Part shown: positions 1 to 55,105 of the stretch, in pieces | Layout of the letters: every line of letters starts with the position of its first letter | Position numbering within the stretch: position 1 is the stretch's first letter | Translations under genes and position numbers: made by a program | Virus genome (UHGV): UHGV-0308106 | Direction: 5' to 3' (one strand) | Length of the DNA stretch: 55,105 nt | Origin: a virus | Notes under the pieces: generated by a model | Seen by the model: only the letters and a program-made list of their open reading frames with translations | What the model was told of the DNA's origin: nothing | The model's database searches: none

Positions 1-448
1 TGATACCTCTGTAACCACAATTTTGTTTAATTATCTCAACGTGCACATTTTCTGAACATACATGCGGCACGTGAATGTGTTAAACAATAGTAGATGACTT
101 TATCCGCAGTAATCAAAGGTTTTGAGTGAGCAACTCTGCGTCAGGAAAGGGCATTTTTCCTGAATATGCTCACATCATATAAAGAAATACAGATAAAGTT
201 ATTATCTGCTTGTGGGGGTGAATGCACTGACCGACCTATAAGGAAAGGCCAAACAAGAACACGGTTGCAAAAACCGTGCCCTTAAATATTGAATCTCTAT
301 TCAGAACACTTTCTTAAATTGTCATTTGGCATATTACGAACAATTCCGCGTAAAAACGTTCTGTTACGCTAAACCCTTATCCAGCAGGCTTTCAAGGATG
401 TAAACCATAACACTCTGCGAACTAGTGTTACATTGCGTGTAGCTTTGA

Positions 449-1699
449 GTGGGCAACTTTGTGTACACTTTTGTGTACCCAAAAACAAAAATGTGTACCC
501 ATTCAATGATCACCGACACAAAGCTCAGGAAGGCGCTCGGCAAGAAAAGAGATGATATCGAGATTATTTCTGATTCGCACGGGCTCAACGCCAGAATCAG
601 CCAGGCCGGAAAAATATCATTTTTCTATCGGTATCGCTGGGCCGGTAAAGCGGTAAAACTCAATGTTGGTGATTATCCTGCAATGAGTATCACCCAGGCA
701 AGAGAGCGTCGCCAACAATTCAGAAACTGGTTAACTGAGGGACTGGATCCGCGAGAGCAGGTGAAGCTGGATAAGCAGACCCGACAGGAAGCGATGTCCG
801 TTGCCGAAGCGTTCAATTACTGGATTGAAAGGCACTGTATCGCTAACGGGCTAGTTAAAGTCGATTACTATCGCCAGGTGTTTGAGAAACATATCGCCGA
901 ACCGATGAAGAATGTCAAAGTCGATAACACAGCGAAAATGCACTGGATCAACGTCTTCGATTCTATAGAAAGCAGGGTGATGGCTCATTACATGCTTTCG
1001 CTGTGCAAACGGGCGTTTAGGTTCTGCGTTAACAGAAGTGTGATCGCCTCAAACCCACTCGAGGGATTACTGCCATCTGATGTCGGGCAAAAGCCTAAAA
1101 AGAGAACTCGCAGGATGGACGATGACGATCTGCGCAAAATCTATCAGTGGTTGAAAAGCCATATGTCGATAGAGTCCGTTTTCCTGGTGAAATTTATTAT
1201 GCTTACCGGATGCCGTACGGCTGAGATTCGACTTAGTGAGAGATCATGGTTTCGATTGGATGATAATGAGTGGGTCGTGCCTGCGGGCAGTTATAAAACT
1301 CGGGTACATATTAGAAGGGGACTCTCAGACGCCGCCGTTAACCTGGTCAGAAATCACCTCAAGAAAATAAACACCAATCACCTGGTGACTTCACAACGTA
1401 AAATTGATGGCGGGATCAAAGATTCGCCCGTTCATTCACCTGTGGCATCCAATTACGCCCGTTCTATTTGGAATGGAACAGGTATGGCAGAGTGGTCGCT
1501 TCATGATATGAGGCGGACGATAGCCACAAATCTCTCTGAGTTAGGTTGCCCGCCGCACGTAATTGAAAAGCTGCTCGGGCATCAGATGGTGGGGGTTATG
1601 GCGCATTACAACCTTCATGACTATATCGATGATCAGAAACACTGGCTCCGCGTTTGGCAGAGCCATCTTGAAGAGATCATCGGAGAGCCCTTCAGTTAA
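449..1699 (+). CDS. int: tyrosine integrase (P4/Rac-type)
   Basis: 416-aa ORF; N-terminal [10 protein letters not shown] arm-binding-like segment; C-terminal RRTIATNL and LGHQ..MAHYNLH catalytic-type motifs; true start may be an internal ATG at 491 or 506. Confidence 0.85.
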
Positions 1700-1938
1700 T
1701 TTATCTTCTTTTTATCCTCCCACTCTTTGATTGACTCAGAGCGCCAGCGGTTAGGGTTGCCGGGCCAGTCAGGGGGTGGGAACGGGCATACGAAGCCCCG
1801 AGGCATTGTGTCTGCACTTTGCCATGACCAAAGGGTTTTGCGTGAAATTTTGTAGCGACTGGTCAGGTCTGACGTTACCAAAATATCATCCATAGCTCTC
1901 TCCAGTTGCCCGTTCGGGCCATTCAAAATCTTTTTCAA
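1696..1938 (-). CDS. small DNA-binding protein, excisionase/AlpA-like
   Basis: 80-aa ORF convergent on integrase stop (4-bp overlap); HTH-like [10 protein letters not shown] segment; position typical of xis. Confidence 0.45.
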
Positions 1939-2177
1939 CCAACCTGCCCGGGCAGGGAGCGGAGACGGCGCATGCCGGTCATCGCTGTGGCCACGTAGCT
2001 CGCCTTTCGGTTCACCACCTCCACCCAGACTTTCACGCCTTCAACCTTCACCGTATAAGTCTCTTTCATCTTGCTTCGCCCATAGTCGCCATATGTTTGC
2101 AAGTGAGCTGCCAGCGCGATGTCGCATGCTTGGCGAGCTAAAGGTGATTGCTTACTTCCTCGATTGATCAGTCGCAT
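1935..2177 (-). CDS. hypothetical small phage protein
   Basis: 80-aa ORF, 4-bp overlap with downstream gene, same leftward operon as recombination genes. Confidence 0.35.
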   Translation of the reverse strand: MRLINRGSKQSPLARQACDIALAAHLQTYGDYGRSKMKETYTVKVEGVKVWVEVVNRKASYVATAMTGMRRLRSLPGQVG

Positions 2178-2215
2178 ATAATCTCCTTGAGGGAGGGTTA
2201 CCCCTCCCGGTTTCG

Positions 2216-3334
2216 TCAGGCCACGTATTCCGGTTTCATATCCGCCAGGGTGATGCTGAATTGATCGTGCAGTTCATCGCCTAAGTGACGCTTTGAAGAT
2301 GCAAGCATGCGCTCGGCTTCAGCGAACCGTTCGGCTGCATGCGGCTCGTCGGGCTGGGGCAGGGATTTAATAGCCTCCTCAACCTTGTTGCGTGCATCCA
2401 CTAGGTAATAACGCTTTACGGCTTTGTTTTTCAGCTCGGTGAATAGTGCGGATCCCAGCGTAGCTTTCGCCGTTTCAATGTCGGCACGCAGCGATTTGGC
2501 GCTATCCACGTCCTGAGCAGATTCGATGCGTTCGCGGAAATCATCGGCAAGAGAGTCGACATTTACCGACGATTCCTGTGCGCTTTGCGTGGTTGTGACG
2601 GTGTCACCTGAGATATCAGCCAGGCTAACGCGTTGCGGCGTTGGGTTGATCTCTTTTTCTGTGCGCTGTTCAATCTCATCAGGGGTGTACACACCAAGAA
2701 CAACTGCAGGGCAATACAGGCGCGCCCAGTATTTGAGTGCCAGATAAGCGATCTGCTGTTTCGGGTTTGATACCCAAAGTGGAGAATTACGTGTGATTAC
2801 GCTGGAGAGGAAAACAGGCTCTCCCCAGGTGATATCACTTTCACCGCGAATAACGGCACCTACCCGTACCGACAGTCCTTGTTCATCAGCACTTTCCCAA
2901 CCGCGTACCATTTCTTTCTTGTCGTACGTCCCGCCACCTTTCGCAGGCTTTTTAACGGTTATCTCGCGGCTGCTGGCACATTTCGACCAGTCGCCCTCGT
3001 ACTCATAGTGAAAGCGGCCAACGATGGCGTTTGAGCTGGAGATCACCGCATTAACCAGTTGCGCTTCGTATCCCAGGACACCGTTAACCAGGTGCGTCTT
3101 TTGCGCCACGGCGTAAGGGTTCATACCCCACTGCATCGCCTGCATGATGATGGCCATGCAGTCTGCCGGATTGCCGCGGAGGTGCTCAGGCACCGTTACG
3201 GCTGCCTGTGCCATCAACCCGGCGACAGACTGAAGCTGGGTTAAAGCCTGCACGTTGAAAATGGCATTGCTGGCTGAGATCGTGTTTGGAGTCTGCTGTT
3301 CAGCGGTTACGATATTCGTGTTTTCCATCATCAT
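2216..3334 (-). CDS. single-strand annealing protein (Bet/RecT superfamily)
   Basis: 372-aa ORF immediately downstream of RecE-like gene; segment ADCMAIIMQAMQWGMNPY resembles the lambda Bet region DAQFIALLIVANQYGLNPW as recalled from memory. Confidence 0.65.
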   Translation of the reverse strand: MMMENTNIVTAEQQTPNTISASNAIFNVQALTQLQSVAGLMAQAAVTVPEHLRGNPADCMAIIMQAMQWGMNPYAVAQKTHLVNGVLGYEAQLVNAVISSSNAIVGRFHYEYEGDWSKCASSREITVKKPAKGGGTYDKKEMVRGWESADEQGLSVRVGAVIRGESDITWGEPVFLSSVITRNSPLWVSNPKQQIAYLALKYWARLYCPAVVLGVYTPDEIEQRTEKEINPTPQRVSLADISGDTVTTTQSAQESSVNVDSLADDFRERIESAQDVDSAKSLRADIETAKATLGSALFTELKNKAVKRYYLVDARNKVEEAIKSLPQPDEPHAAERFAEAERMLASSKRHLGDELHDQFSITLADMKPEYVA

Positions 3335-3339
3335 TCCCC

Positions 3340-6300
3340 TTATGCCTGAGTACGCAGCGCTTCAAGGCGGCGCAGGTCGAAGTCGTTCAGTTCGTCGGTG
3401 TAGTCAGCAGTGATTGGCGCTGGCCATTCACCTGTGTCGAATCCGGTTGCGATATTGCGCATCGCTTTGCGGTACTCGAGCATACCCAGCTCCAGTAGTT
3501 CAGCGGATGCCTCGATGATGGCGATCCAGTGGTAGTTCTCGTCTTTGTTGACGAAAATCCAGAAGAACTGATCCAGCGCTGCGGTTTCGCAGTACATAGC
3601 CGCGCTCAGGTGATAATCACGTTCAATAATTTCCCGGTGTAGCCTGGCGCGCAGGCTTTCCTGCTTAACATTCCACATGCTGATGGTTTTCAGGTCAGCA
3701 CCGATACGCACGCCGTCTAGGTCGATCTCAAGATCAGGGCGCACACGAACTTCCAGTCCCGTCTCCTCGTCAAAGCCAAAGTAGCTCACCTCAACGGCGC
3801 GGCTCGGGTGGGTTAGCAGCATGCCTGCGGTCGGGTGTGCCAGAAGCGCTTTTTGAATATTCAGCGCGGTGCTCAGCTGCTGGCGGGTGACCAGCACTTT
3901 TCCTTCCGGGTTATCGCGCCAGGCATCCAGCAGTTCGTCGGCAAATACGGCATCTGGTTTGACTGCCTTCACGGCCTGGATCATGTCTGCTTTGGTACCG
4001 GACACTTTCAGTGGTGCCGGTTTCTGTGCTTCCTGAGCCACAAGGTCAGGGTTGATGATTGCCAACTGCTCCAGCAGCGCGTCACGGCTGCCGCTGGTTT
4101 TAACCGGCGGCGGCAGGGTGGCGTTGTACTCTTTAATGCATGCCTTCATTGCCGTCGCCGTCTGCTTCTGGTCACCATCAATACGCTGGAAGTCAGCTGG
4201 CAGCGCCATATAGTTCTGTGCCGTTTCTTCCAGGTTAGCGCCAAGCGGAACCTGCGGCGGCAGGGTGGCGTTGTACTCTTCCAGTAACACCTTGATGTCG
4301 TCGGCAGACAGCAGCGCCGGCAGGCTGGCATTGTGCTCATCGATAAAGGCGCGCAGGGTCGCGGCCGTTGTGAATGCGCCTTCAGGGATCACCGGTTCAA
4401 CGCTGAATTCTGCGTCCAGTAGTTCAGGCTGCAACGCCAGCGCATGCACCAAGTTGCCCATGTCCAGCACCGCTGAGCGCTCTTTGACGATGGTTTTCTC
4501 TACGTGGCGCGCATTGAAGTACATCAGCGAAACGCGCGCATCTTTCACCTGGGTTGAGCTGATGCCGTTGGCGGCGTGGTAAACCTCGTTTGGCAGCCCT
4601 TCATAGCGGCCTGGCTCGAAATAAGCGGGATAAACAACAGCTGGTTCGTCAGATTGCGCTTCTGGCTCGGTTTGTGCTGCAACTGGTTCGGTTTGGCTTA
4701 CAGAATCGCTATTTTTGGCGACAGAATCCGTATTCTGGTTTACATCGTCCTTCTGGCTGGTATCTGACTCTTCACCAGACTCCAGACTGCTTTCGCCTGG
4801 CTGTACTTCATCACCAACATTTTTTTCATCACTGACAGTTTCTTGAACCTGCACATTGCTGGTGGTTTCCGTAGCCTGTTTCGTGCCATGAGTTGCTGAG
4901 TTCTGCAGTAAAGCCGTAACATCGAATATTCCGTTGCCGACATTTTTAACCAGTTCTTGTTCGGCTTTATGTGGTTGTGCTGTCGCTTCCTCTGCGCGGC
5001 GGCGTGCTTCTTCTTCACGTACGCGTTGCAGGTTCTCTTCGTGAGTGCAGAAGGATTTGCGCGGAGACTCCTTACCTTCAGGTTGGGGAATTTCCTGTGC
5101 TGCGGGTTCAGCCTCATGCAACGGCAATAACTCGACCGCGGAATTGAACGCGGCTGTCATGGTCTGGTTAACAAATTCCAGGTGAGCGACAGGAGTTAAA
5201 TGAATATTTTCCGGTGCGATACGTACCAGGTTAAAAATAGCCGTGCGGTTAACACCCAGAACGCCTGGCTGATTGCGCAGGATGTTGCTCCATGATTTCC
5301 ATGGTTCTTCTTTTTTGGTCACGATTTCTTTAGCGCGACGAAGAATGCTGCCCGGGATCTCGAAGTGGTTGAAGTCCATAGGCAGAAGGGCACATGCAAT
5401 CTCTAAATCGAGAGTGTCAAGGGTATGGTATGTATCAGGTCCACGGTCAGTGACGTAACCGCCGTTGGCATTGGTTCCGGAATCAGTACGCTGCACACTA
5501 CTGATGCGATTACCGGCGGCCCATTCGCGAACAAGGATACCGCGGTCGATGTGATCTGTAGCGAACCACAATTTCAAAAACTGGATTAAGGTTGCGAGTT
5601 CAGGGATTTTTCCATCGACAGGGAAGACTTTCTTAACGGCATTCACGACTTTATGAATATCGTGCTCAATGGCTTTTTTGAATGCTTCCACATTCTCAGC
5701 TGCCAGCAGCAGGTTCTGGACGTACGCGTCATCGGTGTCCATCTCAAGGCGGACAATCTCATTTTTCTGCCCTGCGTCGATGTGATAGAGATATTCACCA
5801 TCACCGATGAACTGAGCCAGTACGCGCTGGCGGAATGGCAGGGTGGCAACAACGATCAGGTTCGGTTGCTGTGTCTGCTGGGATTGCTCTTCGGTATCGA
5901 CTTCACCATCAACGACGCCACCTTCTGCCCGGCCGTTCTCGTCGGTCTGGATACCGTCCTCAACAGTGAGATCTTGACCAGTTGTAACGTCAGCAGCGTT
6001 GCTGGTTTCAGTTTTGAGCAACTGCAACTTACCACTGCGCCAGTCTTCTACCAGTTGATTGCGGTCACCGGCATCGGTGTTCACCCAGTCAGACATGAAT
6101 GCAGCGATCAATCTTGGTTCGTGCTCTTCGTCTGGTGTGAAAATGTCCTTAACCGCCCGAATCATTTTCCACTCAGCATTCAGGCTGAGTTTGGCGGTCG
6201 CGGGCACATCGTTCCTTGCCACAAGCAGGCTATGGAGATATGTATTGCCTTCATCCAGTGACATTTCGCTGGCAGCCAACTGCTGCTCTTTAGTGACGTG

Positions 6301-6729
6301 GGTTTGGTATTTATCGTTCATCAGATGGACGGCAAAGCGGACCGCTGGAGTACGGTTTTCAACCGGGACAATTTCGGACGCAGTCGCATCTTCAACGATT
6401 ACGGTCGGAGTAGGTGTGTAGGGGGCGTCAACGGAACCAGTAGACACACCAGCGGCTTTTGGCAGCCAGGTGCGCCCATCGTCCTGAAGCTCGTAGCGAT
6501 CACACCAGGTAAAATCAACTTCACCTTCTTTCGGCAGACCGTCGACAACTGGGAAATCAGTGCGAATCGGTTTGGCGTAGTCCTTACCCCGACCTGTTTC
6601 GATACCTGCATCTTCCAGCGCAACATCCAGCATCAGATTGGCGCGAGCCTCGGTTTTAGCAGTGAACCAGACCACTGCATCTTGCTTTCCGGATTTCTGA
6701 GTGGCTTTAACCACATTAAAGAATTCCAT
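3340..6729 (-). CDS. recE: RecE-like exodeoxyribonuclease VIII
   Basis: 1129-aa ORF; N-terminal TDFPVVDGLPKEGEVDFTW and GNRISSVQRTDSGTNANGG match my memory of E. coli RecE; long acidic low-complexity middle; C-terminal nuclease-like region; paired with annealing protein. Confidence 0.8.
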   Translation of the reverse strand: MEFFNVVKATQKSGKQDAVVWFTAKTEARANLMLDVALEDAGIETGRGKDYAKPIRTDFPVVDGLPKEGEVDFTWCDRYELQDDGRTWLPKAAGVSTGSVDAPYTPTPTVIVEDATASEIVPVENRTPAVRFAVHLMNDKYQTHVTKEQQLAASEMSLDEGNTYLHSLLVARNDVPATAKLSLNAEWKMIRAVKDIFTPDEEHEPRLIAAFMSDWVNTDAGDRNQLVEDWRSGKLQLLKTETSNAADVTTGQDLTVEDGIQTDENGRAEGGVVDGEVDTEEQSQQTQQPNLIVVATLPFRQRVLAQFIGDGEYLYHIDAGQKNEIVRLEMDTDDAYVQNLLLAAENVEAFKKAIEHDIHKVVNAVKKVFPVDGKIPELATLIQFLKLWFATDHIDRGILVREWAAGNRISSVQRTDSGTNANGGYVTDRGPDTYHTLDTLDLEIACALLPMDFNHFEIPGSILRRAKEIVTKKEEPWKSWSNILRNQPGVLGVNRTAIFNLVRIAPENIHLTPVAHLEFVNQTMTAAFNSAVELLPLHEAEPAAQEIPQPEGKESPRKSFCTHEENLQRVREEEARRRAEEATAQPHKAEQELVKNVGNGIFDVTALLQNSATHGTKQATETTSNVQVQETVSDEKNVGDEVQPGESSLESGEESDTSQKDDVNQNTDSVAKNSDSVSQTEPVAAQTEPEAQSDEPAVVYPAYFEPGRYEGLPNEVYHAANGISSTQVKDARVSLMYFNARHVEKTIVKERSAVLDMGNLVHALALQPELLDAEFSVEPVIPEGAFTTAATLRAFIDEHNASLPALLSADDIKVLLEEYNATLPPQVPLGANLEETAQNYMALPADFQRIDGDQKQTATAMKACIKEYNATLPPPVKTSGSRDALLEQLAIINPDLVAQEAQKPAPLKVSGTKADMIQAVKAVKPDAVFADELLDAWRDNPEGKVLVTRQQLSTALNIQKALLAHPTAGMLLTHPSRAVEVSYFGFDEETGLEVRVRPDLEIDLDGVRIGADLKTISMWNVKQESLRARLHREIIERDYHLSAAMYCETAALDQFFWIFVNKDENYHWIAIIEASAELLELGMLEYRKAMRNIATGFDTGEWPAPITADYTDELNDFDLRRLEALRTQA

Positions 6730-9607: not shown

Positions 9608-9841
9608 ATGAAAGCACTTGATAAAGCAATATGCATCGTAGGGGGTGCAACCCGTTTAGCAGAAAAGCTCAATGTATCCCCAATGACGGTCAGTCACTGG
9701 CGTCACCGTGACAATGGATTCGTACCGGCTAACCGTGTCATTCCTATTTTCAATGCTACAGGTGTAACTCCACATGAGTTACGCCCTGATTTGTACCTCA
9801 ACCCTACGGATGGATTACCGGCTCAGGAAGCGAGGGCATAA
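9608..9841 (+). CDS. Cro/YdaS-like HTH regulator
   Basis: 77-aa product MKALDKAICIVGGATRLAEKLNVSPMTVSHW; GGAG SD; track ORF 9377 start is over-extended. Confidence 0.7.
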   Translation: MKALDKAICIVGGATRLAEKLNVSPMTVSHWRHRDNGFVPANRVIPIFNATGVTPHELRPDLYLNPTDGLPAQEARA

Positions 9842-9843
9842 CC

Positions 9844-10383
9844 ATGCAGTCACTATCACTTCATCAAAATAGCGGATATCAAACGGCTGCGATGATAAAT
9901 CGCAATCAACCTGTCTCGGTAGATAAACATGACCAGATCCGCGATGCCGTTCGTGCGTGGGCGGGTGTAGATGGTCAGGATGTCGTTTCTGCTCTGATCA
10001 TCGAAGAGTACCAGGCTCAAGGGGGAGACGAGATCACTTTCCCTGATGACCTCAGCCGACAGCGTCAGAAGCTTTTCCGCTTTCTGGATAACCATTTCAA
10101 CAGCGAACGGTACCGCGAAAACGTTCGCCAGCTGACTCCGGCAATCCTCGCTGTCCTGCCGATTGAATACCGCAATCGTCTGCTACCAGAAGACAACGTA
10201 ATGGCTCGTCTGGCAAGGCTGGAGAAGGAAACCAGCGAAGCGAAGATTGCTGTCGCAATGGATGCGCCACGTCATCAGAAGCTGAAAGAGTTGAGCGAGG
10301 GGATCGTGGAGATGTATCGCGTTGACCCTGGGTTAACCGGTCCGTTGATGGAAATGGTGCAGATTATGCTGGGGGCTATATGA
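9844..10383 (+). CDS. YdaT-like regulatory protein
   Basis: 179-aa ORF; IIEEYQAQGG and LTPAILAVLPIEYRNRL resemble my memory of Rac YdaT; sits at CII position. Confidence 0.6.
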   Translation: MQSLSLHQNSGYQTAAMINRNQPVSVDKHDQIRDAVRAWAGVDGQDVVSALIIEEYQAQGGDEITFPDDLSRQRQKLFRFLDNHFNSERYRENVRQLTPAILAVLPIEYRNRLLPEDNVMARLARLEKETSEAKIAVAMDAPRHQKLKELSEGIVEMYRVDPGLTGPLMEMVQIMLGAI

Positions 10384-10467
10384 CCGGTTCAAAAATGGCG
10401 AAAGCCGCGGTGCTCGAACACCAACGGCTTTCAGGTGCAAAAACAGTGCGTAATTGCGGAGAACAGT

Positions 10468-11376
10468 ATGTCAAACACCGCTGAAATAATCAATTTCCCA
10501 AATAAAACCGAACAACCGGGAGGTCGTATGGCCGACCTGTCGAACGGGTATACCAAGGTCGCTAACGAGATCCAACAGCTTAAGCCTCGCCTGAGACTGT
10601 CAGGCCGGGAATGGCAATGTTTTGAGGCGGTGATCTGGCTTACCTACGGCTGGAACAAGAAACAGGACCGCGTGACAAATACGGTTATTGCCGAGCTTAC
10701 GGGCCTGAGCGATACGCATGTATCGGACGCGCTTAAGTCTCTCGCAGAACGCAAAATCATCTTTTCACAGAAGCAGGGCATGATGAAAATCGTCGGTGTA
10801 AACACTGACCTTTCAGCATGGATTTTAGACAAACCGGAAACGGGAAGAAAATTCCCGAAAACGGGAAAATCCTTCCCGAAATCAGGAATAACCTTCCCGA
10901 AAACGGTAGACACCCAATACAAGAACAAGAACAGTATTAAAAGATCTTCGTCCGAGAATTCTGACGAATCCTCTGACGCACGTCTGAAGAAATTTTTATC
11001 AACTCATCCTGAAGCTGCGGTCTACACACCATCCGGTGCGAAGTGGGGCTCTGCTGAAGACCTCGAGACAGCTAAGTGGATTTCCTCCAGGGTGAAGCTG
11101 ATTAACCCAACCTGCAAAGCCCCGGACATGACCTCCTGGTCTAACACTGTTCGCCTGATGCGCCAGATAGACGACCGGTCGCACCAGGACATCTGCGCGC
11201 TGTATGACTGGGCTAGCAAACACCACTTCTGGCAGACCAACATCCTGAGTCCCGAAAGCCTGCGTAAGCAGTGGGACAAGCTGACAATGCAGCGTAACGC
11301 CGGAGGTGAGCAGCGCGCTGTCAAGCCAGATCTGGACTTCAACAACACTGACTGGGCCTATGGGGTGATCCGATGA
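10468..11376 (+). CDS. replication initiation protein (lambda O-like)
   Basis: About 302-aa from ATG with GGAG SD; N-terminal O-like domain (REWQCFEAVIWLTYGW); iterons embedded mid-gene; 4-bp overlap with P-like gene. Confidence 0.8.
   Translation: MSNTAEIINFPNKTEQPGGRMADLSNGYTKVANEIQQLKPRLRLSGREWQCFEAVIWLTYGWNKKQDRVTNTVIAELTGLSDTHVSDALKSLAERKIIFSQKQGMMKIVGVNTDLSAWILDKPETGRKFPKTGKSFPKSGITFPKTVDTQYKNKNSIKRSSSENSDESSDARLKKFLSTHPEAAVYTPSGAKWGSAEDLETAKWISSRVKLINPTCKAPDMTSWSNTVRLMRQIDDRSHQDICALYDWASKHHFWQTNILSPESLRKQWDKLTMQRNAGGEQRAVKPDLDFNNTDWAYGVIR
10831..10910 (+). repeat. origin iterons inside O-like gene
   Basis: About four direct repeats of roughly 20 bp with core TCCCGAAAACGGGAA (units starting near 10834, 10852, 10873, 10893), encoding the repeated KFPKTGKSFPKSGITFPKT peptide. 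Confidence 0.6.
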
Positions 11377-12062
11377 AATCTCTTGCAGAGCAGATGCGTA
11401 ACCACGACCGCGAGCAGATGAGCCGCATGGCCCATAACCTGCCAGAGCAGTACCAGGAGTGCGCGCCGGTCGAGCAGGTGGCGCAGGTATTCAACAAGCT
11501 GTTCAACGAGCTGCGCGCCGCGTTCCCGGCCAGCATGGCGAACTTCCGCACCCAGGAAGACCTGAACGAATTCCGCCGTCAGTGGCTGCTGGCGTTTCAG
11601 GAGAACGGGATCCACACCATGGCTCAGGTCGATGCCGGCATGCGCATTGCCCGCCGCCAGGAGCGCCCATTCCTGCCGTCGCCGGGCCAGTTCGTCGCCT
11701 GGTGCAAGCAGAGCGGCGGCGCGCTGGGCGTCAACGTTGACCAGGTGATCGCCGAATACTGGGACTGGCGTAACCGCTCGTTCGAATTCATCTCCAGCGA
11801 GCAATTTCCATGGTCGCAGCCGGTCATGTACCACATTTGCGTAGAATTGCGCCACCGCAGCACCGAGCGCCAGTTAACGCATGGTGAACTGGCACGCGAG
11901 GCAGGCGATCTGCTGGACATGTGGGAAAGGCGCGTCACCGAGGGTAAGCCAGTGCCGCCGGTACGCCGGGCTATTGCCGCACCAGCTGCCGAGCAAGGGC
12001 CGACGCCGATCCAGCTGCTGCTGGCCAAGTACAACCGCAACAAGTCGAACGGGATGGTGTGA
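11373..12062 (+). CDS. P: replication protein P-like helicase loader
   Basis: 229-aa ORF; near-collinear similarity to lambda P as recalled (REQMSRMAHNLPEQY, RPFLPSPGQFVAWC). Confidence 0.85.
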   Translation: MKSLAEQMRNHDREQMSRMAHNLPEQYQECAPVEQVAQVFNKLFNELRAAFPASMANFRTQEDLNEFRRQWLLAFQENGIHTMAQVDAGMRIARRQERPFLPSPGQFVAWCKQSGGALGVNVDQVIAEYWDWRNRSFEFISSEQFPWSQPVMYHICVELRHRSTERQLTHGELAREAGDLLDMWERRVTEGKPVPPVRRAIAAPAAEQGPTPIQLLLAKYNRNKSNGMV

Positions 12063-12063
12063 C

Positions 12064-12303
12064 ATGAACATAACAATCCGTGAGCAGGTGCTGGCAGCCC
12101 TGCGCAACAACCCAGGGTTGAACAACGCCAAACTGGCAGGGCTTCCCGGAGTGGTACATCATCGATCAGGACTATCGGGGGCAGAAGTACGCGAAGGACA
12201 AGCAGGTTGCGCGTTGTGGCAACGCAGTTCCGCCGCCATTCGCCGAGGCACTGGTGAGGGCTAATTTACCGGAGCTTTGTCAGCAGAAAGAGATCGCAGC
12301 TTA
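12064..12303 (+). pseudogene. DNA methyltransferase remnant (frame-disrupted)
   Basis: ATG at 12064 opens frame MNITIREQVLAAL; a different frame carries the C-terminal tail ARCGNAVPPPFAEALVRANLPELCQQKEIAA ending at 12303; no intact long ORF. Confidence 0.3.
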
Positions 12304-12403
12304 ATGTCCGAGTTTCAGAACATGGTGTAACAAATCCTGCTACTTCAATGACGTAGATTCAAACCTGATATAATTAGGCTCTTCACAACACGAGGAGCCT
12401 AAA

Positions 12404-12640
12404 ATGCACCATTACATGATCCCTATCAACGGAACTGTTCACCTGATCAAGACTGACTCTCTAATCCCTGAAGGGACTGAGTATAGCTTTGAAGGAGAAA
12501 GTCTAATCTGCGCTCATGCCACTTTTAAATCTGGGACGTATGGCTTCCTGATACCAAAGGGAAATCAGTTGAATAGAGAGCATGCGTTCTGGCATGTAAG
12601 TGGAATTCACCCTAATCCCCTGGGAATGGATAAATCGTAA
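12404..12640 (+). CDS. hypothetical protein (moron)
   Basis: 78-aa ORF in AT-rich insert; AGGAGCC SD and TATAAT-like element upstream; flanked by duplicated methyltransferase 3-prime ends. Confidence 0.4.
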   Translation: MHHYMIPINGTVHLIKTDSLIPEGTEYSFEGESLICAHATFKSGTYGFLIPKGNQLNREHAFWHVSGIHPNPLGMDKS

Positions 12641-12910
12641 TCCATAATATGCATGCCATCGTCCTGAACATACGGTGGCATGCATCCGGCACTACAACAG
12701 AAACGTTAAAGTGCAAACAATACAATTCGAGCAATATTCAACCTGTCACAGATGGCGAATACCACCGCCATTTCGTGCATTCTGTGGTTTCTATTACCCA
12801 TTGCGTTAATGCTGTCCAATCATCAGCTCGCTGAGGCGCTGGTTAGGGCTAACCTACAGGAGCTTTGTCAGCAGAAACAAATAGCGGCGTAATAAAACAT
12901 CGCTAATTCA

Positions 12911-12938
12911 ACCCGCTACGGCGGGTTTTCTTTTTTTA
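12911..12938 (+). terminator. intrinsic terminator
   Basis: acccgc-tacg-gcgggt hairpin followed by ttttcttttttt. Confidence 0.6.
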
Positions 12939-12996
12939 CTACTGACAGAAAATTAACAATTTGTGCTCTTAAAGCGTTGATCATTTCCGCGCATAG

Positions 12997-13019
12997 GTAT
13001 ACTGTATAAAAACACAGTA
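12997..13019 (+). promoter_or_regulatory. LexA box overlapping -10 of dinI promoter
   Basis: TACTGTATAAAAACACAGTA (13000-13019) fits CTGT-N8-ACAG; TATACT -10 at 12997-13002. Confidence 0.7.
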
Positions 13020-13037
13020 AATGCAATGGGGGCCATT

Positions 13038-13271
13038 ATGAAAGTTGAATTAACCATTGATCGCATGAAAGAACTTCCTAAAGGCGCAGTACCAGCACTG
13101 GAGAAAGAACTGCTTAAGCGCCTGAATGATCACTATGACAATTGCAGGCTCACAATCCGCCGTGCCGGGGCCGATGGGTTAAGTGTTTTTGGTGGTGACA
13201 AGGACGATAAAAAGAAAATTGAATCAATCCTCCAGGATACCTGGGAAAGCGCTGACGACTGGTTTTATTAG
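13038..13271 (+). CDS. dinI: DinI-family damage-inducible protein
   Basis: MKVELTIDRMKELPKGAV...ILQDTWESADDWFY, DinI-like throughout; alternative start 13026. Confidence 0.85.
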   Translation: MKVELTIDRMKELPKGAVPALEKELLKRLNDHYDNCRLTIRRAGADGLSVFGGDKDDKKKIESILQDTWESADDWFY

Positions 13272-13388
13272 AATTGCGCTTAAGGCTGGCGCGCATTTTT
13301 CAGAATACCGCAATTTGCGTAACCCTCTGATGCTGCTGCCGACAATCTTTAATCGCGTCTGTTAGTCGCTCGAAGGGAGAACATAAAT

Positions 13389-13637
13389 GTGAGTGATTCA
13401 GCTTTGCAAACGTCAGAAGACAACTGGTATGACATTGTAAGAAGGTCTGACGGCTGCGTGGTGTTTAGCTTTCCTTCATCGGGCAGGCATCTAATTTATC
13501 GCGTCAATGGCATGGTTTCTATGCGGCCTTTGCTGGATGATGAAGAGGTCTTTACTCCTAATGGTTTTATGCAGTTTATTCACCGTCTCGGCTACCGGGT
13601 AACCCCACCTTCTGATAATATGAAATCAACGGTCTGA
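13389..13637 (+). CDS. hypothetical protein
   Basis: 82-aa ORF, GTG start. Confidence 0.35.
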   Translation: MSDSALQTSEDNWYDIVRRSDGCVVFSFPSSGRHLIYRVNGMVSMRPLLDDEEVFTPNGFMQFIHRLGYRVTPPSDNMKSTV

Positions 13638-13671
13638 ACAACCGTAACCTACTGCGCCACGGAGAGAAACC

Positions 13672-14271
13672 ATGGCGCACGAACTACAACTCATCAAGCA
13701 TTCCTCAGGAATCCTGATCCCCGCTACGCCGGAGACCAGTGATTTACTGCAATCAAAAATCAAACTCGGCTCCGTACTGGTGGCTGAGTTCCGGCAGGTA
13801 CGCAACCCGGCCTTTCACCGTCGTTTCTTCGCGTTACTCAATCTCGGTTTCGAATACTGGGAACCCACCGGCGGGGCAATCTCCTCCAACGAACGCAAGC
13901 TGGTAACCGGCTATGCCAAGTTCCTTGCCTCATTCGCGGGAAGTGAAGCAGCACTCCTGGATGCTGCTGAGCAATATCTGGACCGCATCGCCGATAAGCG
14001 TACTGGTAGCATCTGCGCCTGTAAGTCATTCGATGCATATCGTGCATGGGTCACTATTGAGTCCGGCCATTACGACGCCATTCAGCTGCCTGACGGCACC
14101 CTCCGCAAACATCCCCGCAGTATCTCATTCGCAAATATGGATGAAACTGAGTTCCAGCAGCTGTACAAAGCCGCGCTCGATGTTCTGTGGCGATGGATAC
14201 TCTCCCGATCATTTCGCAGTTGTGAAGAGGCAGAAAACGCCGCCGCCCAGCTGATGAGCTTTGCGGGGTGA
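13672..14271 (+). CDS. nin-region protein (DUF1367/YbcN-like)
   Basis: 199-aa ORF; motif RNPAFHRRFFALLNLGFEYWEP; position upstream of ybcO-like and rusA. Confidence 0.45.
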   Translation: MAHELQLIKHSSGILIPATPETSDLLQSKIKLGSVLVAEFRQVRNPAFHRRFFALLNLGFEYWEPTGGAISSNERKLVTGYAKFLASFAGSEAALLDAAEQYLDRIADKRTGSICACKSFDAYRAWVTIESGHYDAIQLPDGTLRKHPRSISFANMDETEFQQLYKAALDVLWRWILSRSFRSCEEAENAAAQLMSFAG

Positions 14272-14477
14272 TGGCGATGAAATTTTCCTGGTTCCACCAT
14301 CACGAATGCACCACCGAACAGGCCGACGAGCTGGTGGAGAAATACCGGGCGCGCGGTGTAAAGACAGAGCGCAGCCTGAATCGCGACAACATCACCTGGA
14401 CCGTCAGCGCGCAATTGCCGGAAGGCGATAACGCGCCTCGCCCGAGCCGGGTATGGCAAAGCAAGGCGTGGGGGTGA
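14268..14477 (+). CDS. hypothetical nin-region protein
   Basis: 69-aa ORF, ATGA overlap with upstream gene. Confidence 0.35.
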   Translation: MMAMKFSWFHHHECTTEQADELVEKYRARGVKTERSLNRDNITWTVSAQLPEGDNAPRPSRVWQSKAWG

Positions 14478-14479
14478 GC

Positions 14480-14770
14480 ATGGCAAATTTACGCAAAGAG
14501 GCTCGTGGTCGTGATTGTCAGGTTCGAATTCCCGGCGTCTGCAACGGTAACCCGGAAACGTCTGTACTGGCGCACATTCGCCTGGCCGGGTTATGTGGCA
14601 CCGGAATCAAACCGCCTGATCTGATTGCCACCATTGCATGCTCTGCCTGTCACGACGAGATCGACCGCCGTACACATTTTGTCGATGCTGAGTATGCTAA
14701 AGAATGCGCGCTGGAAGGTATGGCGAGAACGCAGGTTATCTGGCTGAAAGAGGGGGTAATCAAGGCGTGA
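14480..14770 (+). CDS. YbcO-like Cys-rich putative nuclease (DUF1364)
   Basis: [32 protein letters not shown]...CSACHDEID; overlaps rusA GTG start. Confidence 0.55.
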
Positions 14771-15129
14771 ATACTTACAACATCACATTGCCCTGGCCGC
14801 CGAGCAATAACCGCTACTACCGCCATAATCGCGGGCGCACGCACATCAGCGCAGAAGGGCAGGCATACCGCGATAACGTCGCCCGAATCATTAAAAACGC
14901 AATGCTGGATATCGGTCTGGCTATGCCTGTGAAAATCCGCATTGAGTGCCACATGCCGGATCGCCGTCGCCGTGACCTGGATAATCTGCAAAAGGCCGCT
15001 TTTGACGCACTCACCAAAGCAGGTTTCTGGCTGGACGATGCTCAGGTCGTTGATTATCGCGTTGTGAAGATGCCCGTTACCAAAGGTGGAAAGCTGGAAC
15101 TGACAATCACCGGGCTGGAGGCCGTATGA
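14767..15129 (+). CDS. rusA: Holliday junction resolvase RusA
   Basis: [24 protein letters not shown]...[18 protein letters not shown] near-identical to E. coli RusA as recalled; GTG start. Confidence 0.9.
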
Positions 15130-15262
15130 CATTTGAATCCTGTTTTTCCGATCACCTCCGCGTTCGCTGGCAGCGGCTTCGCTTATACCACTTTCCCGGC
15201 TCTGTGCTAACGGACTACCGGATACTGAAGAATTACGTGAAAACTTATGCTGGAGAAGCGCT

Positions 15263-16045
15263 ATGAACCTTGAAAACACAGTGAAATACCACTTCGCTAA
15301 ATCCACACTGATTAGCGATTCTCCGCGCGCTACCGCCTCCGATTCACTGACCGGTACCGACATAATGGCTGCCATGGGCATGACGCAGGAACGCGCCGCA
15401 ATGGGTTACAGCGCCTTCCTCGGCAAGATGGGCATAAGCAATAACGACCGGGATCGGGCGATCGGTCTGCTGGCTGAGTACGCGATGACAAAATGCGACA
15501 AGGTTGCCGCACTGCGTAAGCTCGGTGCCGCGGTTAAACCTCAGGTGATGCACCAGTTGGCCACCTTCGCTTTTGAGGACTATTCCCGCAGCGCTGCCAG
15601 CGTGAAGCAGTGCGATTGTTGTGACGGTCAGGGCTTCATTGAGGCTGACGTGTTTACCAATAAATTCCGTAAGCCAGAAGGGAAAATGACCGTGTCCGGG
15701 ATGGTGAAGGTCAAAGAATCCATCAAAGTGCTATGCAAAAAGTGTAATGGCTCTGGTGTGGTTAGTGCTTCTTGCAGTGATTGCCATGGGCGCGGCAAGG
15801 CAGTGAACCAGGCTCTTACTGAGAAACAGGGCGTTCCTGTTCTGGCTGACTGTAAGCGCTGCGGAGGGCGTGGGTATGAACGACTTCCGTCGACTGAAGC
15901 CTATGCTGCTGTATGCCAGATTACTGACGCCATTAGCCTGGACACCTGGAAAAAGTCTGTTAAGCCATTCTACGACCTGCTGATCACGAAATTTGATATC
16001 GAAGAGTCCTGGGCCGAAAAACAGCTTAAGCAGATAACGCGGTAA
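15263..16045 (+). CDS. late-gene antitermination protein Q-like
   Basis: 260-aa ORF after rusA and before lysis genes; multiple CxxC pairs (CDCCDGQG, CKKCNGSG, CSDCHGRG, CKRCGGRG). Confidence 0.6.
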   Translation: MNLENTVKYHFAKSTLISDSPRATASDSLTGTDIMAAMGMTQERAAMGYSAFLGKMGISNNDRDRAIGLLAEYAMTKCDKVAALRKLGAAVKPQVMHQLATFAFEDYSRSAASVKQCDCCDGQGFIEADVFTNKFRKPEGKMTVSGMVKVKESIKVLCKKCNGSGVVSASCSDCHGRGKAVNQALTEKQGVPVLADCKRCGGRGYERLPSTEAYAAVCQITDAISLDTWKKSVKPFYDLLITKFDIEESWAEKQLKQITR

Positions 16046-54049: not shown

Positions 54050-54504
54050 TATACTGCCCTTACAATGTAGTTGAATGCAATGTTGCGCGGACGGGTTTCT
54101 GAACCACCTGGCGCGTTGGTCGCTATAGTTTTCAAGTTAATTCTCGCGCCAGTGGCATCAGCCCCCACGACGTATGGGCCGCCCGTTCCGTCTGGACCAG
54201 TCGCCCCCCATATTTCTTGGAAATAGTGGTCGTGGGCTTTAAACGTATCACTTTGTAACGAAAGGATTGTTCGCCCTGAATCCACACCACGCCCGTCATC
54301 CCAGCCACGAATGAATTCACCGCGTAAATCAGGCAATTTATTTGTCGGGTAAGCCTTTGCCAGTTCCGGGTATTCTTCAGCAGAAAAATCCGCACCATTG
54401 CATTTCAGCCAGCCTGTTGGCGGTGTGGCTGAAGGCCACGGAACAGGCACCCCAACAGGTAATGCTGAGCCTTCTCCCAAACCAACCTTTTTTATAACCA
54501 TCAA
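54049..54504 (-). CDS. alternative tail fiber variable C-terminal segment
   Basis: 151-aa on opposite strand; N-terminus spans the invertase crossover site. Confidence 0.55.
   Translation of the reverse strand: MMVIKKVGLGEGSALPVGVPVPWPSATPPTGWLKCNGADFSAEEYPELAKAYPTNKLPDLRGEFIRGWDDGRGVDSGRTILSLQSDTFKAHDHYFQEIWGATGPDGTGGPYVVGADATGARINLKTIATNAPGGSETRPRNIAFNYIVRAV
54472..54497. repeat. candidate invertase crossover site (right)
   Basis: TTCTCCCAAACCAACCTTTTTTATAA resembles hix/gix sites as recalled (TTCTTGAAAACCAAGGTTTTTGATAA). Confidence 0.4.
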
Positions 54505-54556
54505 AAATCTGGTGATGCTTCGCCGTTTCTCCTGTTTTCATAACAGGAGAAATCCC

Positions 54557-55105
54557 ATGATTTACGGTTATGCCCGAGTATCAACAAACCACCAGGACAC
54601 TGAATTGCAACTAACGGCGCTCAAGTCAGCGGGTTGTGAGAAAATTTTTGAAGAGCATGCCAGCGGGAGGAAATCGAATCGGCCGGTTCTAAAACGGCTG
54701 ATCGCCACTATGCAGCCGGGGGATGAACTGGTGGTCTGGAAGCTGGACAGGATAGGCCGCAACGTTCTGCATGCGCTGTTGATGTTCCAGCAGTTACAGG
54801 AAAAGGGTATCAACTTCCGCAGTATTACCGATGGCGTGGATCTCAAAACAGCCAGCGGCCGCTATAACTTTCGTAACATCCTTTCCGCAGCACAATATGA
54901 ATCTGATCTTAATAGCGAACGTACCTTAGCAGGGCTGGCCGTAGCCAGGGCAAAAGGGCGAGTTGGTGGTCGCAGGCCTAAGTTCACGGATGAGCAATGG
55001 TGGGAAATGGGGGAGCGGATGGCAACCGGTGAATCACGACAAAGCGTATCAAAAACATATGGAGTAGGGCTCTCAACTCTGTATAAAAAGTTTCCAGCTA
55101 GCTGA
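54557..55105 (+). CDS. serine DNA invertase (Gin/Hin/Pin family)
   Basis: MIYGYARVSTNHQD...QLTAL...VVWKLDRIGRN; AGGAG SD; ORF ends at last base of window. Confidence 0.9.
   Translation: MIYGYARVSTNHQDTELQLTALKSAGCEKIFEEHASGRKSNRPVLKRLIATMQPGDELVVWKLDRIGRNVLHALLMFQQLQEKGINFRSITDGVDLKTASGRYNFRNILSAAQYESDLNSERTLAGLAVARAKGRVGGRRPKFTDEQWWEMGERMATGESRQSVSKTYGVGLSTLYKKFPAS

Follow-up and report, generated by a model that had tools for sequence, protein, structure and literature searches.

Duplicated methyltransferase gene tails around a small gene: a probable mosaic joint between P and ninB of a phi80/mEp237-like Escherichia coli prophage

In the virus genome UHGV-0308106, two similar but non-identical copies of the 3' end of a C5-cytosine methyltransferase (MTase) gene lie on either side of a small open reading frame (ORF), which raises the question of how the gene tail was duplicated and whether the small gene was inserted between the copies. 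A first-pass annotation had interpreted the arrangement as a moron inserted into an MTase remnant, with duplication of the 3' end of the gene. Our comparison with related loci (numbered L below) indicates instead, with high probability, a mosaic joint in the non-essential P-ninB stretch of a phi80/mEp237-like prophage, which was built and then eroded stepwise.

The locus and its repeated gene tail

The window, that is, the whole stretch of 55,105 nucleotides that we analyzed, is filled almost entirely by one prophage, and the locus belongs to its early-right region. Judged by its sequence matches, this region corresponds to the P-to-nin region of a lambdoid E. coli prophage of the phi80/mEp237 type. 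Nucleotides 299-5556 (the attP region, integrase, excisionase, RecT, and part of RecE) matched phage mEp237 at 99%, and nucleotides 9757-15648 (cII, O, P, the nin region, and Q) matched it at 96-99%; the late genes (approximately 16-54 kb) were not mEp237-like, whereas the early region was. The integrase gene occupies 449-1699, and both att and the integrase are of the phi80/mEp237 type; the right end of the window (54471-55105) matches the mEp237 DNA invertase. The genes around the locus are arranged in the order O (10435-11376), P (11373-12062), the region in question, dinI, an 82-aa ORF, and ninB (13672-14271). The 82-aa ORF (13389-13637), which lies in the gap between dinI and ninB, matched phrog_340 and phrog_1813 (function unknown) and accompanies dinI in most of the related loci. 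The features of the region are as follows.

11373-12062, plus strand: ORF for replication protein P (phi80 gene 14-like), annotated thus in mEp237 and in RefSeq E. coli; left-hand context
12064-12264, plus strand: 66-aa fusion ORF; ren-like codons 1-27 (12064-12144), then out of frame through the MTase remnant
12136-12144, no strand: deletion junction with the 9-bp microhomology GCAGGGCTT, which is found at both deletion ends in undeleted relatives
12137-12304, plus strand: C5-cytosine MTase remnant; last 55 codons and stop, with only the motif X region (GNAVPPPF) and the tail
12240-12305, plus strand: repeat copy A; probable native 3' tail of the resident MTase gene, contiguous with an intact MTase gene in L025 and L036
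12348-12374, plus strand: putative sigma-70 promoter of orf78; -35 ATGACG (12348-12353), 15-nt spacer, extended -10 TGaTATAAT (12366-12374)
12404-12640, plus strand: orf78; 78 aa, phrog_30079 (phage family, function unknown), predicted five beta-strands and a C-terminal helix
12649-12685, plus strand: hairpin; 14-bp stem (12649-12662/12672-12685), 9-nt loop, -22.2 kcal/mol, z = -3.55
12686-12827, no strand: non-coding spacer that always travels with orf78; common to all loci of the window's type
12828-12893, plus strand: repeat copy B; probable orphan 3' tail of a second MTase allele, a recombination scar
12910-12937, plus strand: intrinsic terminator; 7-bp GC-rich stem followed by TTCTTTTTTT
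13000-13019, plus strand: LexA (SOS) box TACTGTATAAAAACACAGTA, read from the sequence, 5' of dinI
13038-13271, plus strand: dinI homologue (PF06183, E = 3.8e-26); right-hand module, which carries copy B along

The dinI neighbor belongs to the DinI family, with a score of 91.6 bits against PF06183, for which the gathering cut-off is 24.2. The box in front of it, 19 nt 5' of the start codon, is nearly perfect and fits what we take to be the LexA consensus, CTG-N10-CAG; the prophage dinI is therefore probably SOS-regulated, as the chromosomal gene is.

The two copies of the gene tail aligned without gaps over 66 nt at 83% identity, with 588 nt from start to start (local BLAST E-value, 1.6e-12). 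The coding tail of copy A, AEALVRANLPELCQQKEIAA, extends from 12242 to 12301 with its stop codon at 12302-12304, and that of copy B, AEALVRANLQELCQQKQIAA, from 12830 to 12889 with its stop codon at 12890-12892; both are stop-terminated and encode AEALVRANL(P/Q)ELCQQK(E/Q)IAA. The duplicated tail reported in the first-pass annotation at 12241-12303 and 12829-12891 was thus correct to within 1-2 nt, and the alignment identified the copies as homologous MTase 3' ends. By hand count from the aligned sequences, the copies differ at 11 positions, 9 of which are synonymous. Since the differences are mostly synonymous, the copies appear to have diverged inside working genes, as two different functional alleles.

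The segment between the copies had also been described as AT-rich. Its GC content is indeed low (0.41-0.46 from approximately nucleotide 12300, compared with 0.58-0.66 upstream), but it stays low through dinI and the 82-aa ORF to approximately nucleotide 13650, so AT-richness is not peculiar to the supposed insert.

Decay of the resident methyltransferase gene

Copy A is the end of an MTase remnant that corresponds to residues 608-662 of the 662-aa MTase of E. coli H6 (93% identity, tblastn); the stretch 12136-12237 matched MTase at E = 1.7e-33 (nhmmer). A complete C5-cytosine MTase core (PF00145), which we defined by AdoMet-binding motif I, the catalytic PC motif IV, a target-recognition domain, and motifs IX-X, is absent from the locus; the catalytic and AdoMet-binding motifs are gone, and the longer MTase fragment of mEp237 covers only positions 270-320 of the 324 in the PF00145 profile. 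The only upstream start codon is out of frame with the remnant, and the remnant is non-functional. Intact C5-MTases of the nin region are found in E. coli H6 (WP_073464677, 662 aa) and in Klebsiella phage 5 LV-2017 (ARB15725, 715 aa), in the same genomic position as in the window, before orf78 or dinI and ninB. The last 55 codons in the window are 81-85% identical to both in nucleotide sequence; in contrast to these genes, the window has nothing left beyond the motif X region and the tail.

The first-pass description of a frame-disrupted, MTase-like fragment upstream proved accurate: codons 1-27 of ren run, in a different frame, into the last 55 codons of the MTase gene. The N-terminus of the mEp237 Ren protein (winged-helix) reads MNITIREQVLAALRNNPGLNNAKLAGL... 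The resulting 66-aa fusion ORF, which PGAP labels as a hypothetical protein, matched no family in profile searches, whereas intact Ren matched phrog_142 and HTH_24; this ORF is a meaningless by-product of a deletion.

Apart from that one deletion, the locus is 99.8% identical to that of mEp237. The window is shorter by 718 bp than mEp237 and E. coli CUWW10 and by 3583 bp than L025 and L036. The 718 bp in mEp237 and CUWW10 hold a complete ren-like gene, a 65-aa ORF (gp45), and a 134-codon C-terminal MTase fragment. L025 and L036, which are IMG/VR prophages, are undamaged and carry P, ren, hyp45, five small ORFs, a full-length MTase gene, orf78 (100% identical), tail B, and dinI in that order. 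Measured against these two, 2865 bp are missing from mEp237, with a 13-nt microhomology at the deletion, and a total of 3583 bp from the window. On this comparison, both the window and mEp237 are deletion derivatives of the L025/L036 layout.

The closest known counterpart of the locus is already deposited and annotated, as gp43-gp48 of mEp237 (NC_019704 / JQ182730), although the duplication itself is unannotated there. Like the window, mEp237 has P, the C-terminal MTase fragment, an annotated promoter, both tails, and dinI, and its gp47, a 78-aa hypothetical protein, is the counterpart of orf78; unlike the window, it has kept the complete ren, gp45, and the 134-codon MTase fragment, and it does not share the late genes of the window.

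A full-length MTase gene is followed by orf78 and then by copy B in five relatives (L025, L036, L027, L028, and L034), indicating that the duplication is older than the decay of the MTase gene. Comparison with intact MTases thus confirmed that the copies are MTase 3' ends and spoke against an insertion into a remnant, since the MTase genes of these relatives are intact; the destruction of the resident MTase gene was a later, unrelated deletion. Such decay is not particular to this prophage. In many other prophages, remnants of approximately 20 to 110 MTase codons precede dinI, a range spanned by approximately 25 loci, and this range of lengths indicates that the MTase gene has been eroded repeatedly in prophages and that a tail remnant attached to dinI is commonplace. 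One further locus (L057, IMGVR_UViG_2912075814_000002) carries an independent wreck of the gene approximately 300 nt 5' of dinI, in which the first 31 codons are joined to the last 73. In a second prophage family (L007, E. coli MSB1_9D, and L010, E. coli KL53), the same 99-nt MTase remnant stands after a helix-turn-helix gene; it is followed by an orf78-like gene and the theta-subunit gene in one of the two and by dinI in the other, suggesting that these are alternative cassettes exchanged at the same tail.

orf78, its position and its putative transcript

The 78-aa ORF that had been noticed between the copies is real in its extent and has homologues. It matched phrog_30079 over residues 1-78 of 78 (E = 6.9e-49) and is a member of this family, as is a 40%-identical homologue in E. 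coli H6 (1.2e-49), which is annotated there (WP_016247098). The family is small: an exhaustive search of 1.84 billion representatives yielded approximately 4 real clusters at 50% identity, and a word-indexed homologue search yielded only 2 close relatives. Its members are 75-78 aa long, with 18 invariant residues among six aligned sequences. A scan of genome contigs found no relatives, and Pfam, NCBIfam, and PADLOC gave no match. The predicted model (pLDDT 80.5) consists of five strands and a helix, and a fold search returned no significant structural neighbor. Across loci, the nucleotide identity of orf78 is 97-100%, compared with 76-92% for the sequence around and after it; being better conserved than its flanks, orf78 behaves as a gene under constraint. 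It was present in 32 of 5426 complete E. coli genomes (RefSeq). PGAP annotates nothing over it in 31 of these 32, and in the remaining one (CUWW10) the match covers only the neighboring MTase pseudogene. One 142-aa protein, P0003, combines an unrelated 82-aa N-terminus with residues 19-78 of orf78 (97% identical); this could be an artefact of gene calling or mark a further recombination joint within orf78.

The place of orf78 in the genome bears directly on whether it is foreign. Either orf78 or its 40%-identical homologue lies directly 3' of an MTase gene or remnant in 27 of the 30 IMG/VR loci, the exceptions being L033, L037, and L042, and L037 keeps only a 64-nt tail before the gene. The order of MTase followed by the orf78 homologue also occurs in E. 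coli H6 and MSB1_9D. In H6, L038, L039, and L041, an intact MTase gene is followed by a homologue of the same length and then by the theta-subunit gene, with a single tail and no second one. Moreover, DNA homology between the window and H6 is unbroken from 12136 to 12417 (81%), across the MTase stop codon and into orf78, indicating that copy A, the intergenic region, and orf78 form one native block. As far as these alignments tell, the position after the MTase gene is native to orf78 rather than foreign.

Upstream of orf78, the putative promoter has a perfect -10 hexamer with an upstream TG and matches the -35 hexamer at 4 of 6 positions; it is annotated as a promoter in mEp237. It was missed by a consensus scan that demanded a spacer of 16-18 nt, the actual spacer being 15 nt. 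A Shine-Dalgarno sequence, GAGGAG (12392-12397), is located 6 nt 5' of the ATG. Downstream, the hairpin noted in the first-pass annotation at 12649-12686 is genuine, although its stem has 14 bp rather than 9 and it is stronger than was claimed. It is partly conserved among relatives. We rejected it as a canonical intrinsic terminator, since it has no T-tract; it could be a 3' stabilizer or a weak terminator. The first canonical terminator 3' of orf78 is the one at 12910-12937, beyond tail B, which is the original terminator of an MTase gene. The orf78 transcript would thus likely run from approximately 12380 to approximately 12937, with the orphan tail as its 3' untranslated region. A search for known RNA families at the locus gave only a chance-level Rfam match, over the terminator. 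Taken together, we regard orf78 as a real, conserved, and apparently dispensable small gene, and we read its product as a small cytoplasmic protein accessory to the MTase module, independently expressed and non-essential.

Origin of the second tail and fate of the cassette

If copy A and orf78 are one native block, it is copy B that has to be accounted for. A pattern search found full-length MTase genes with a B-type tail, identical to copy B at 53-56 of 66 nt. In four of these loci (L053, L082, L085, and L087), the B-type tail is followed by a nearly identical terminator region (66-68 of 68 bases) and then by dinI. L058 has the same join of MTase, tail, and terminator (68 of 68 bases), and its DNA ends before dinI; L055 has a B-type tail but diverges downstream of it (45 of 68) and lacks dinI. 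The MTase gene also stands directly before dinI in Klebsiella phage 5 LV-2017. In the MTase frame, the variable sites of tail B across loci are distributed 3/3/12 by codon position. These comparisons indicate that copy B is an orphan tail, left from a second MTase allele. The hairpin, spacer, and tail B are common to every window-type orf78 locus, even L031, L032, and L034, where a gene other than dinI comes next, which indicates that the joint was made once. The similarity of tail B to the window does not follow that of its left neighbor (98% vs 88% in L029, and 89% vs 97% in L028), which suggests repeated exchange at the tail B patch; copy B is also a homology patch for further exchange.

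These observations would fit a history of three steps. Two related phages would each have had a large C5-cytosine MTase gene at this place, followed by orf78 in one and by the terminator and dinI in the other. A single unequal, illegitimate crossover between a point downstream of orf78 in the first and a point near the 3' end of the MTase gene of the second would have given MTase (tail A), orf78, hairpin, spacer, tail B, terminator, and dinI in that order; orf78 is probably transcribed from its own extended -10 promoter, with termination at the old MTase terminator. Comparison with the relatives shows that microhomology-mediated deletion later destroyed the resident MTase gene, with separate extents in mEp237 and in the window, where codon 27 of ren became joined out of frame to what remained of the MTase gene. 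Comparison also shows that the diverged tails have remained recombinogenic, the orf78 cassette having been removed in at least two independent events. Because later homologous exchange shuffles the flanks, neither the first parents nor the sequence of certain steps can be proved. The first-pass view of a recombination scar that delivered a new gene therefore survives in part: the locus is a joint between the 78-aa gene and the dinI module, and from the standpoint of the MTase-dinI parent a gene did arrive, though through a single unequal crossover rather than an insertion between repeats.

In E. coli M172-1, WEM25, and GPEC60-12-649, the ren::MTase junction of the window is kept and exactly 588 bp are missing, and the single remaining tail is a chimera of A and B. 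The switch from A to B falls between repeat positions 5 and 11 in M172-1 and within a 19-nt identical run in WEM25 and GPEC60. These two classes of crossover indicate at least two independent recombinations of tail A with tail B that deleted orf78, and the chimeric tails indicate that the cassette-less form is derived and not ancestral. The loss of orf78 from sequenced genomes also indicates that it is dispensable. Exchange with a third allele is, in principle, another conceivable source of the chimeric tails in WEM25 and GPEC60; A and B markers are already mixed in some natural tail alleles, for example that of KL53.

A recombinase that might act on such tails is encoded by the prophage itself. 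The genes for RecT (2216-3334) and for a 1129-aa RecE-like exonuclease (3340-6729) are open and match those of mEp237 at 99%. The RecT proteins of phi80 and Rac recombine short diverged sequences, and Rac RecE/RecT does so down to 78% identity (De Paepe et al. 2014, PMC3945230). The locus resembles that system of phage Rad52-like recombination in having 66-nt tails of 83% identity, encoded RecT and RecE, and natural tail-by-tail crossovers, and differs from it in that the involvement of RecET here is inferred. The prophage RecE/RecT is a plausible catalyst of the recombination between tails; such products could also arise by RecA-dependent recombination or by replication slippage. A broader reading would make the MTase tail of approximately 66 nt a portable homology arm for RecET/Red-type swap or loss of cassettes (orf78, theta, and dinI) and orf78 an MTase companion of undescribed fold, with a role such as anti-defence or host takeover, that is useful after the MTase is lost; we consider this rather unlikely as a whole.

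Tandem duplication of the 3' region of the MTase gene in situ, with decay of the second copy and with orf78 arising or being captured between the copies, seems improbable. It would account for a weak in-register similarity to MTase in the spacer: over the last approximately 90 nt, 31-35 of 90 positions are identical to the MTase 3' body in register, compared with 12-28 in other registers, and C-x-NAV is kept, as if the second copy had once been longer and were old. However, nhmmer found no significant MTase DNA homology 5' of 12828, and the sequence immediately 5' of the 66-nt tail B is much less well preserved than the tail itself; the spacer has no codon-position bias and contains frameshifts between loci. 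The concentration of tail B variation at third codon positions and its match to the intact MTase-dinI tails, with their 66-68 of 68 identical downstream bases, indicate that another functional allele was the source of tail B or refreshed it. The approximately 90 nt before tail B may still be an older, decayed MTase remnant, in which case the boundary at 12827/12828 would have been set by a later conversion rather than by the original joint. A longer ORF that extends from 12649 and takes in tail B (80 aa in L027 and L028) was rejected as a gene because it is frameshifted or stopped in most loci.

The original proposal, a self-contained moron that entered a degraded MTase remnant and duplicated its 3' end like a target duplication, is still less probable. 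Juhala, Hendrix, and colleagues reportedly described novel joints and morons in the mosaic genomes of lambdoid phages, in comparisons of HK97 and HK022. Like such morons, orf78 is a small gene between conserved genes, with a possible promoter of its own, and it is present or absent among otherwise collinear relatives, being missing from M172-1, WEM25, and GPEC60-12-649 and from the MTase-dinI loci L053, L082, L085, and L087; direct repeats do bracket the cassette, which is AT-rich relative to the upstream genes. In contrast to lambdoid morons, orf78 is in its native place, no factor-independent terminator lies directly downstream of it, the adjacent hairpin not being canonical, and the apparent insertion is better described as an unequal crossover that left an orphan tail. 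The same duplication stands beside intact MTase genes in relatives, orf78 homologues follow intact MTase genes that lack a second tail, and the cassette-less genomes, with their chimeric tails, are derived. A duplication made at insertion would not be expected to show 17% divergence that is nearly all synonymous, or a copy B contiguous with intact MTase genes elsewhere. Identical repeats and a recombinase, as in an insertion with target-site duplication, were not found, and the region 12000-13700 contains no transposase or integrase ORF.

That copy B was kept because it is functional, as the C-terminus of a small hydrophobic protein (46-aa ORF, 12752-12892), as a regulatory RNA, or as a recombination site, is hardly credible, for although tail B occurs in every window-type orf78 locus and the N-terminus of the ORF is hydrophobic and transmembrane-like, the ORF lacks a Shine-Dalgarno sequence, L033 has a mutated start codon, the tail changes frame between loci owing to a 1-nt indel at 12825, an in-frame stop interrupts the tail in L031, L032, and L034, the codon-position counts of 7/3/8 give no coding signature, and Rfam gave no match above noise. 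The 46-aa ORF was rejected as a conserved small membrane gene on the grounds that its frame differs between loci and that it has no third-position bias, and it is probably not a gene.

The mosaic joint resembles the novel joints of lambdoid phages, which non-homologous recombination creates and homologous exchange in the flanks then spreads; the locus reveals no new mechanism and is a case of ordinary lambdoid mosaicism. It offers a natural example of how the mosaics of lambdoid prophages are built and taken apart: an orphan gene tail is left at a single illegitimate joint, a dispensable MTase gene is then worn down by microhomology deletions, and the cassette is later lost through the short diverged repeat, by two types of crossover that are recorded in sequenced E. 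coli genomes.
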